1,443 nucleotides of DNA, from NCBI RefSeq assembly GCF_003334355.1, contig NZ_QOWP01000087.1. One strand, 5' to 3'. A model generated the notes under the pieces. It did not search any database, was not told the DNA's origin, and saw only the letters and a program-made list of their open reading frames with translations. This DNA comes from Escherichia coli. Lineage in GTDB: Bacteria; Pseudomonadota; Gammaproteobacteria; Enterobacterales; Enterobacteriaceae. Positions 1-1,443 of the stretch are shown in pieces (position 1 is the stretch's first letter; each line of letters begins with the position of its first letter). The translations under genes were made by a program, and so were the position numbers.

Positions 1-31
1 TGTACTGACCCCAAAAAGTTGGACAGTTAAA
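1..31. repeat. Terminal inverted repeat at the orfB-proximal end (IRR in the element's own orientation)
   Basis: TGTACTGACCCCAAAAAGTTGGACAGTTAAA; shares the terminal TGTACTG and internal GTTGGAC blocks with the opposite end. The inner boundary is approximate. Confidence 0.8.
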
Positions 32-878
32 CACGAGGCATATAGGTCTGATTCCGATATTCAATTGGAGTCAGACCTTTTAATTTCAGGCTAATTCTTC
101 TGCTGTTGTAGTATTCAATATATTCCGTAACAGCATCCTTCAGTTCGCTTATATTACTGAACTCATCAAGATAAAAACACTCCGACTTTAAGGTTCCAAA
201 GAAACACTCCACCACAGCATTATCCAGACAATTGCCTTTTCTGGACATGCTTTGTTTAATACCATGTTCTTTAAGGATATTTTGATATCTTCTCATACGA
301 TACTGCCATCCCTGGTCAGAGTGCAGAACAGGATGCTCGTGAGGATTAAGCTTTTTGAATGCCTGATCGAGCATATTCTCAACCATGTTCATCACTGGTC
401 TTTCCGAAAGGCTGTAAGAAATAACTTCGTTGTTGAAGAGATCTATTACTGGAGACAAATACAGCTTGCGCCCATTGACTGCAAATTCAGTAACATCGGT
501 AACCCACTTCTCGTTTGGCCGCGTAGCCTTGAAATCTCTTTGGAGAACATTAGGGGCGGTTTGCCCTACCTCTCCTCTGTAAGAGCGGTATCGCTTGACC
601 TTAATCGCTGCTTTAAGTGAGAGGGTTCCCATCAGGCGCTGAACAGCTTTATGGTTAATCTGTTTCCCTTCTCGATGAAGAGACAGCGTTACCCTACGGT
701 ATCCGTATCGGCCTCTATTCTCGTGATAAATCTCACTAATACGCTTTTTAACGTCCGCATACTTGTCAGGCTTGCTGAGAGCCTTTAGATGATAATAAAA
801 CGTACTGCGCGGTATCTCCGCAGCCCTGAGAAGCTCATCAAGAGGATAAAACTGCCTTAGCTCGTTGAGTACTTTCAC
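27..878 (-). CDS. insK: IS3-family transposase OrfB (InsK-like): DDE/RNase H-fold integrase catalytic domain, 283 aa if initiated independently at GTG
   Basis: ORF track 27..878 (-). The first codon is GTG (878..876), overlapping the orfA TGA stop as GTGA. DDE triad located by hand: D128 (GAT, 497..495, motif WVTDVTEF), D188 (GAC, 317..315, motif HSDQGWQY), E224 (GAG, 209..207, motif [17 protein letters not shown]); D-to-E spacing 35 residues. The stop lies 26 nt from the window's left end. Confidence 0.93.
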
Positions 879-1396
879 TTTTTCGTGGGATGAGCTAAGG
901 CTTTCAGCTTTTTTAGATACATAAGCCGCGTTTCAAGAAATCGAACTTGCCTTTCAAGATCCTCAATGCGTCGGTCTTTTGACAGCTCCAATGCTGATGC
1001 CGCTTTTTCTGGATCAACTGATATTGCAATGTTTCTTTTGGTGCCAATCTTGAGCGCGCGTAAACCAGCTTCTCCGCGCTCTTCATAGACCTTCAGCCAC
1101 CTGGCTACAGAACCACTACCAGCAAGCATAAAGTGAGCAGCAGCCTGATTAAGGGACATGTGCTGCTCGATCACAGCTTTCACGACCTTAATACGCAACT
1201 CTGGATCAGCACTAACGCCTTTAGGTTTGGGAATTAAACCTTTTTCTCCATGTTTTTCATAGAGGGCAACCCATGTCCTGACCTGGGTTCGGGGGACACC
1301 AAAACGTGCCGAGATGATCCTGTAACCATCATCAGTTGTGAAGTAGTGATTCACGACTTCAAGGCGCTTTTCAAAAGGGTATTTTGGCTTTGACAT
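27..1396 (-). CDS. insJK: Predicted InsJK (OrfAB) transframe fusion transposase, made by programmed -1 ribosomal frameshifting at 914..908; roughly 455 aa
   Basis: OrfA zero-frame codons CTA AAA AAG place the heptamer A AAA AAG at 914..908. After a -1 slip the reading continues GCT GAA AGC CTT AGC TCA TCC CAC GAA AAA GTG AAA GTA..., with no stop, straight into the orfB frame (checked by hand). The length is an estimate from coordinates, not a verified translation. Confidence 0.8.
854..901 (-). promoter_or_regulatory. Frameshift-stimulating mRNA stem-loop: perfect 10-bp stem, 28-nt loop holding the orfA stop and orfB GTG start
   Basis: Plus 854..863 GCCTTAGCTC is the exact reverse complement of plus 892..901 GAGCTAAGGC. 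On the mRNA the 5' arm begins 6 nt (CTGAAA) after the heptamer, a typical spacer for -1 frameshift stimulators. The loop (891..864) contains the GTGA overlap at 878..875. Confidence 0.8.
875..1396 (-). CDS. insJ: IS3-family transposase OrfA (InsJ-like): DNA-binding HTH protein with C-terminal leucine zipper, 173 aa
   Basis: ORF track 875..1396 (-); ATG at 1396..1394, TGA at 877..875. HTH-like segment [24 protein letters not shown] (aa 25-48, about nt 1324..1253). Leucine heptad L147/L154/L161 (about nt 967..896). Begins 47 nt inside the element's right end in window coordinates, as expected for IS3-family orfA. Confidence 0.93.
   Translation of the reverse strand: MSKPKYPFEKRLEVVNHYFTTDDGYRIISARFGVPRTQVRTWVALYEKHGEKGLIPKPKGVSADPELRIKVVKAVIEQHMSLNQAAAHFMLAGSGSVARWLKVYEERGEAGLRALKIGTKRNIAISVDPEKAASALELSKDRRIEDLERQVRFLETRLMYLKKLKALAHPTKK
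908..914 (-). promoter_or_regulatory. Slippery heptamer A AAA AAG (X XXY YYZ) for programmed -1 frameshifting
   Basis: Plus strand 908..914 = CTTTTTT, so the minus strand reads A AAA AAG in the orfA zero frame (L161-K162-K163). Lies 31 nt upstream of the orfA stop. Confidence 0.85.
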
Positions 1397-1425
1397 ATTA
1401 GGGGCTATTCCATTTCATCGTCCAA
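1397..1425 (-). promoter_or_regulatory. Candidate orfA promoter inside IRL: -35-like TTGGAC (1425..1420); no convincing -10 or Shine-Dalgarno found
   Basis: Minus-strand sequence upstream of the orfA ATG: ...GTTGGACGATGAAATGGAATAGCCCCTAAT-ATG. TTGGAC matches the sigma70 -35 consensus at 5/6. The only hexamer at 17-bp spacing (CCTAAT) abuts the ATG, and the best purine run (GGAAT) is a weak SD. This is inference; IS3-family promoters are typically weak and partly within IRL. Confidence 0.3.
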
Positions 1426-1443
1426 CAAAATGGGTGCAGTACA
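1413..1443. repeat. Terminal inverted repeat at the orfA-proximal end (IRL in the element's own orientation)
   Basis: Reverse complement of the 3' end reads TGTACTGCACCCATTTTGTTGGACGATGAAA. Against window 1..31 (TGTACTGACCCCAAAAAGTTGGACAGTTAAA) it matches 18/24 over the first 24 nt and 22/31 over 31 nt. Conserved blocks are TGTACTG (terminal) and GTTGGAC (18-24 from the tip). The inner boundary is approximate. Confidence 0.8.

Follow-up and report, generated by a model that had tools for sequence, protein, structure and literature searches.

IS150, an insertion sequence (IS) of the IS3 family and its IS150 group, has been characterised since 1988. Vogele et al. 1991 reportedly demonstrated high-level frameshifting at its slippery site by experiment, and Haas & Rak 2002 are said to have found that the element forms excision products, both circular and linear, as transposition intermediates. 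Three other members of the family, IS911, IS2, and IS3, are built along the same lines: they encode an OrfA and an OrfB coupled by a -1 frameshift at an A6G motif, carry TG...CA ends and a DD(35)E triad, and employ figure-eight and circle intermediates (PMC3219604, PMC3299598). They differ from IS150 in that they belong to other groups of the family, show low sequence similarity to it, and carry inverted repeat (IR) sequences of their own. ISKpn8 stands within the IS150 group itself; this element, known from Klebsiella, Enterobacter, and Salmonella IncHI2 plasmids, is 1443 bp long and has the same termini and an identical slippery heptamer and downstream stem.

Here we analyse a stretch of Escherichia coli DNA of 1,443 nucleotides (assembly GCF_003334355.1, contig NZ_QOWP01000087.1), referred to below as the window. 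From sequence comparison we conclude, with a probability of about 97%, that the window is one complete, unmutated IS150, bounded exactly by its own termini and displayed as the reverse complement. Nothing about this element is new; all of its features have been described before. In practical terms, an annotator may confidently label the window an intact, presumably active IS150. Within its source genome the element may give rise to insertional mutations, adjacent deletions, and recombination, as IS150 does in the long-term evolution experiment.

Identity and distribution of the element

The identity of the window is established by two annotated or well-placed copies in reference genomes. The IS150 feature of K-12 MG1655 (NC_000913.3, 3720633-3722075) is labelled 'insertion sequence:IS150' (mobile_genetic_element), measures exactly 1443 bp, and holds the genes insJ (b3557) and insK (b3558). 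The window matches this feature end to end, with 1443 of 1443 positions identical and 0 mismatches; the two share the same bases, ends, open reading frames (ORFs), and frameshift signal, and differ only in the orientation of display. The copy that E. coli B REL606 carries between kup and rbsD (NC_012967.1, 3893554-3894996) is likewise identical over 1443/1443 positions, with no sequence difference from the window. Relative to these two copies, the window contains no substitution, indel, or premature stop, and the complete element can be placed at 1..1443 on the minus strand. The window has the annotated length of IS150 (1443 bp) and ends at the TG...CA termini, and none of its sequence features contradicts the IS150 reading. 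By the ISfinder rule, isoforms of an element share more than 95% nucleotide identity; the identity of the window to K-12 IS150 is 100%.

A first-pass annotation, made from the letters of the window, had described an "IS150-like" element of a known type and no novel system. The known type is borne out by the full identity to the annotated K-12 element. The label needs correction: the kinship to IS150 stands, and "like" does not, since 0 mismatches make the element IS150 itself, with a transposase that reads on the minus strand. The same annotation had suggested looking for low identity, premature stops, or indels relative to the reference; at 100% identity to K-12 IS150, the comparison turned up nothing of the kind.

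The element is common in public genomes. A megablast search of 5426 complete E. coli genomes returned matches in 2865 of them, or about half, at a total of 6090 places. Matches occur in 3446 E. coli records, and in 3017 records the best place reaches at least 99% identity. In both E. coli and plasmid records, the matches carry the annotation 'IS3-like element IS150 family transposase'. The plasmid records with the element number 1601 and come from Escherichia, Salmonella, Klebsiella, Enterobacter, and Shigella; their matches band at approximately 100%, 98.8% (an IS150 variant), and 94.7% (ISKpn8) identity. In the case of ISKpn8, the 94.7% identity corresponds to 76 substitutions relative to the window, which alter 10 amino acids of InsJ and 15 of InsK.

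Copies of IS150 are themselves targets of other elements. Many chromosomal copies are split by IS1A/IS1B, IS903B, ISKpn26, or ISApl1, and appear as two-piece matches over 2.2-2.7 kb. Several of these interrupted copies, from different strains, lie at similar genome coordinates (~150-160 kb); the shared positions suggest a nested insertion that has been inherited.

Transposase genes and frameshift signal

The coding content of the window consists of two ORFs, both on the minus strand. The upstream ORF, insJ or orfA (1396..875, ATG start), encodes the 173-amino acid InsA and corresponds to K-12 b3557; it is predicted to contain two helix-turn-helix (HTH) domains followed by C-terminal, leucine-zipper-like heptads. 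The downstream ORF, insK or orfB (878..27, GTG start), encodes the 283-amino acid InsB, corresponds to K-12 b3558, and carries the predicted DDE catalytic domain with an RNase H fold. The two ORFs overlap by 4 nt in relative phases 0/-1, and no stop interrupts the insK frame from window position 932 onward. A programmed -1 frameshift would join them into the InsAB (InsJK) fusion transposase of 456 amino acids (27..1396, minus strand), which we reconstructed. PGAP joins the same span as one coding sequence marked 'programmed frameshift' (WP_085947770.1), and the REL606 kup/rbsD copy encodes the same protein.

Domain searches are in line with this organization. InsK alone scores 350.3 bits against the NCBIfam model NF033516 (transpos_IS3), for which the curated cutoff is 160, and InsJ aligns with the N-terminal portion of that model. 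On the 456-residue fusion, Pfam detects HTH_28 twice (residues 10-60 and 68-116, E = 1e-9 and 6e-9), HTH_21 (216-269), rve (292-390, E = 1.2e-28), and rve_3/rve_2 up to the C-terminus. The C-terminus of InsJ displays leucine-zipper-like heptads in two registers, L147/L154/L161 and I144/V151/L158; an HTH and a leucine zipper in OrfA are features of the IS3 family and the IS150 group.

The catalytic residues of InsK can be assigned from its motifs. These are D128 (in WVTDVTE; D301 of the fusion; codon GAT at 495..497), D188 (in LHSDQG; GAC at 315..317), and E224 (in DNAVVECFF; GAG at 207..209), all on the minus strand; the 2 aspartates fall within the Pfam rve match and the glutamate within the adjoining rve_3 and rve_2 matches. 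They are separated by 59 and 35 intervening residues, giving a DD(35)E arrangement, and K231 follows E224 by seven residues (E+7; codon 186-188). The signature of the IS150 group is D(57-60)D(35)E with a lysine or arginine approximately 7 residues past the glutamate (PMC5771124), and D128/D188/E224/K231 fit it. Compared by sequence with solved structures, InsK had no match at E <= 0.01, and the residue assignment rests on the Pfam rve match and the family motif.

The signal that would direct the frameshift consists of a heptamer and a stem-loop. The slippery heptamer A_AAA_AAG (908..914, minus strand) is in the X_XXY_YYZ phase with insJ; in the canonical orientation it occupies positions 530-536, phase 2 relative to insJ. 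Beginning 6 nt past the heptamer is the candidate frameshift-stimulating stem-loop (854..901, minus strand), an inverted repeat with a perfect 10-bp stem (901-892 with 863-854, 100% complementary) and a 28-nt loop region that contains both the stop codon of insJ and the GTG start of insK. A 76-nt segment folds as RNA at -20.4 kcal/mol, compared with -10.4 +/- 2.8 for shuffled sequences (z = -3.56), a stability that none of 200 shuffles attained. An AnG slippery motif with a downstream RNA structure is again a feature of the IS3 family and the IS150 group. Neither the IS150 variant nor ISKpn8 has any change in the heptamer and stem region, so covariation is uninformative here. Taken together, these data agree with the first-pass description of full-length ORFs (173 and 283 amino acids, with no stop or indel relative to the reference), an intact DDE triad with 59/35 spacing and K231 at E+7, and an intact heptamer in the orfA phase with its 6-nt spacer and perfect stem.

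These parts suggest how the element would move. The pathway and the protein roles outlined here are inferred from published experiments on IS150 and other IS3-family elements. A weak promoter at the left end would drive a transcript that covers orfA and orfB. Ribosomes translating orfA would reach A_AAA_AAG, where they would be stalled by the stem-loop; a fraction would slip back one base and produce InsAB. This fusion would act as the transposase, joining the HTH/leucine-zipper DNA-binding part to the DDE catalytic domain, while InsA alone would serve as a regulator that modulates the reaction. InsAB would bind the terminal IRs and cleave at the 3' CA ends, and figure-eight, circular, and linear intermediates would carry the element into a new target, generating a 3-bp duplication. 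The circular and linear products attributed to IS150 are consistent with the figure-eight/circle pathway described for the IS3 family (PMC3219604, PMC3299598).

Termini and target sites

The window begins with TGTACTG and ends with CAGTACA. These sequences are the outer ends of a 31-nt terminal IR, identified with a repeat finder and by base-by-base comparison, in which positions 1-31 and 1413-1443 are complementary at 22 of 31 positions (71%) and perfectly so over the outer 7. The left IR (IRL; 1413..1443, outer end ...CAGTACA) lies upstream of insJ, and the right IR (IRR; 1..31, outer end TGTACTG) lies downstream of insK. Imperfect IRs with 5'-TG...CA-3' ends are a feature of the IS3 family and the IS150 group.

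The window comes without flanking DNA; the end positions and target-site duplications (TSDs) were therefore read from identical or near-identical public copies, in the orientation of the window. At 5 independent sites, 3-bp direct repeats directly abut the bases that correspond to positions 1 and 1443: GGG at chromosomal hokE (L001, L003), GGG on plasmid p300709_97 (L002), GTC at REL606 kup/rbsD (L005; a GAC duplication in the REL606 reading), TGG on F-type plasmids (L006, L007), and GGT on IncHI2 plasmids (L008, L009). A TSD of 3 bp agrees with the 3-4 bp expected for the IS3 family and the IS150 group. The position of these duplications places the ends of the element exactly at the edges of the window. 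The earlier claim that the window coincides with the IS termini is thus corroborated twice, by the end-to-end match to the K-12 feature and by the TSDs of public copies, and no copy at these 5 sites places the ends elsewhere, the outcome that the first-pass annotation had named as evidence to the contrary.

The K-12 copy, inserted at hokA, displays no TSD (L004:2133/3577). Other strains in which hokA carries no insertion (L010, L011) have, at the position next to the left IR, 39 bp without counterpart in K-12, AGAGGCTAACCTTATGGTGTCTATGCATAGAGGGGCCTC; the missing segment runs AGAGGCTAACC...GGGGCCTC. We infer that in the hokA-IS150-sokA arrangement of K-12 an adjacent deletion followed the insertion and removed one copy of the duplication; this 39-bp deletion would explain why the K-12 element lacks a TSD.

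The hokA site is 1 of a series of similar locations. Of the 9 IS150/ISKpn8 loci examined, 7 (5 of 7 distinct sites) adjoin a type I toxin gene of the hok family, namely hokE, hokA, or a plasmid hok. The hok-adjacent insertions (L001-L004, L006-L008) share one relative position, which follows a motif resembling GGGCCTC..GGG. The hok loci are a documented hotspot for IS150, with insertions at hokC/nhaA, insA-7/hokE, and trg/mokB (PMC5419217 table 3; also PMC5289635).

Two IncHI2 plasmids, pKUSR18 and pEC-IMP (L008:1501-2943, L009:1501-2943), carry different elements at the identical site: the IS150 variant, which differs from the window at 17 positions, and ISKpn8, which differs at 76. The 12 bp on either side and the GGT duplication agree between the two plasmids, and the flanking plasmid DNA is itself ~2.5% diverged. 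Repeated insertion into a hotspot and replacement of one IS by another were both considered and set aside, since the flanks have diverged along with the elements. The simplest reading of the sequences is that of one old insertion, inherited with the plasmid backbone.

Transposition competence and alternative readings

Sequence itself cannot prove that an element moves. With this qualification, the first-pass impression of a transposition-competent copy rather than a decayed relic is strongly supported by its match to an element that transposes repeatedly in REL606 (PMC7881107, PMC5289635): the window is identical to the REL606 kup/rbsD copy, and competence is read from this identity. REL606 carries five IS150 copies with experimentally documented activity, and no other IS has been as active in the long-term evolution experiment founded on this strain: a clone at 50,000 generations has gained on average 9.4 new insertions, the copy number reaches as many as 40, and the element itself stays unmutated through its bursts (PMC7881107). 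In REL4536, the IS150 copies are identical to one another (PMC5289635).

Several points weigh against this view of the window as an intact and competent IS150. The identity was measured against the annotated K-12 element, which serves as a proxy for the ISfinder entry. Competence is deduced from identity to active copies, and activity is host- and site-dependent; in some other strains, movement of IS150 is rarely detected (PMC5289635). In a promoter scan, no consensus sigma-70 site came up ahead of insJ, and promoter-like sites overall were as numerous as shuffled sequence would lead one to expect. These observations lend some weight to the reading that the copy is structurally intact yet effectively silent in its source genome, owing to host factors, a weak promoter, or local context, such that "transposition-competent" would be an overstatement. 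IS150 transposition was rarely detected when several E. coli strains were propagated as mutation-accumulation lines (PMC5289635), and its activity varies strongly among lineages without any change in sequence (PMC5289635, PMC7881107). The 150-bp ends of IS150 showed no detectable promoter activity (PMC12095673), a report with which the absence of a consensus promoter ahead of insJ and across a modelled circle junction agrees. We nevertheless regard a silent copy as the less probable account, a minority reading: identical DNA constitutes the active element of REL606, competence at the level of sequence means that every functional part is intact, and low activity is normal for IS3-family elements and signals no defect.

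The other alternatives concern what the window is. Related elements of 1443 bp do exist at 98.8% and 94.7% identity, so what looks like IS150 itself might instead have been a decayed relic, or else an isoform or more distant relation such as ISKpn8 or the variant on IncHI2 plasmids. This reading is refuted for practical purposes by the mismatch counts, which are 0 to the K-12 and REL606 elements as compared with 17 to the variant and 76 to ISKpn8, and by the lack of stops and indels. It is also very improbable, if somewhat less so, that the window forms an arm of some bigger composite, such as a compound transposon or the junction of an IS-mediated rearrangement. Many genomic matches do have IS150 interrupted by or beside IS1, IS5, IS903B, or ISKpn26, and the K-12 copy has its adjacent deletion in place of a TSD; in the present copy, the flank-free window offers no support for such a structure, and the sequence is that of a single uninterrupted element. 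A complete and competent IS150 is the reading that we retain.

Details of the left end bear on how such an element would be expressed. The sole weak hexamer pair ahead of insJ, TGGACG-18-TAATAT (within window positions 1397-1443, minus strand), lies wholly inside IRL, and its -10 hexamer overlaps the insJ ATG; in the same interval, there is no clear Shine-Dalgarno sequence ahead of this ATG. A modelled circle junction (IRR + 3 bp + IRL) contains no junction-spanning promoter at a score of at least 8/12.

The right end contains a further candidate feature. An Rfam scan of the window identified no family, neither for the frameshift element nor for the hairpin described next; the one sub-threshold match, to mir-15, is attributable to chance, at 20.5 bits where the gathering score is 57.3. 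An inverted repeat and a terminator scan point to a possible inward-facing intrinsic terminator on the plus strand, a 15-pair hairpin at 44..78 followed by TTTTAATTT, the T-run at 79-87. It is the only terminator-like site found in the window; it lies inside the 3' end of insK, antisense to the transposase, and reads inward from the right end. The hairpin folds at -22.9 kcal/mol on the plus strand (z = -6.0) and at -16.0 kcal/mol on the minus strand (z = -3.8), the much greater stability on the plus strand being due to two pairs that are G.U wobbles. It is not conserved in the relatives of ~68% identity that were compared (L012-L014), so the structural hypothesis stays weak. That the hairpin functions as a terminator, shielding IS150 from antisense read-through out of flanking host genes, is accordingly a tentative and rather doubtful suggestion, which draws on two lineages only, IS150 and ISKpn8. 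In ISKpn8 there are 4 substitutions within the hairpin, and all of them keep the pairing on the plus strand (an A-T to G.T change, a two-sided change from T.G to G-C, and a C-G to T.G change); if the hairpin were a terminator, these pairing-preserving substitutions would reflect selection for structure.

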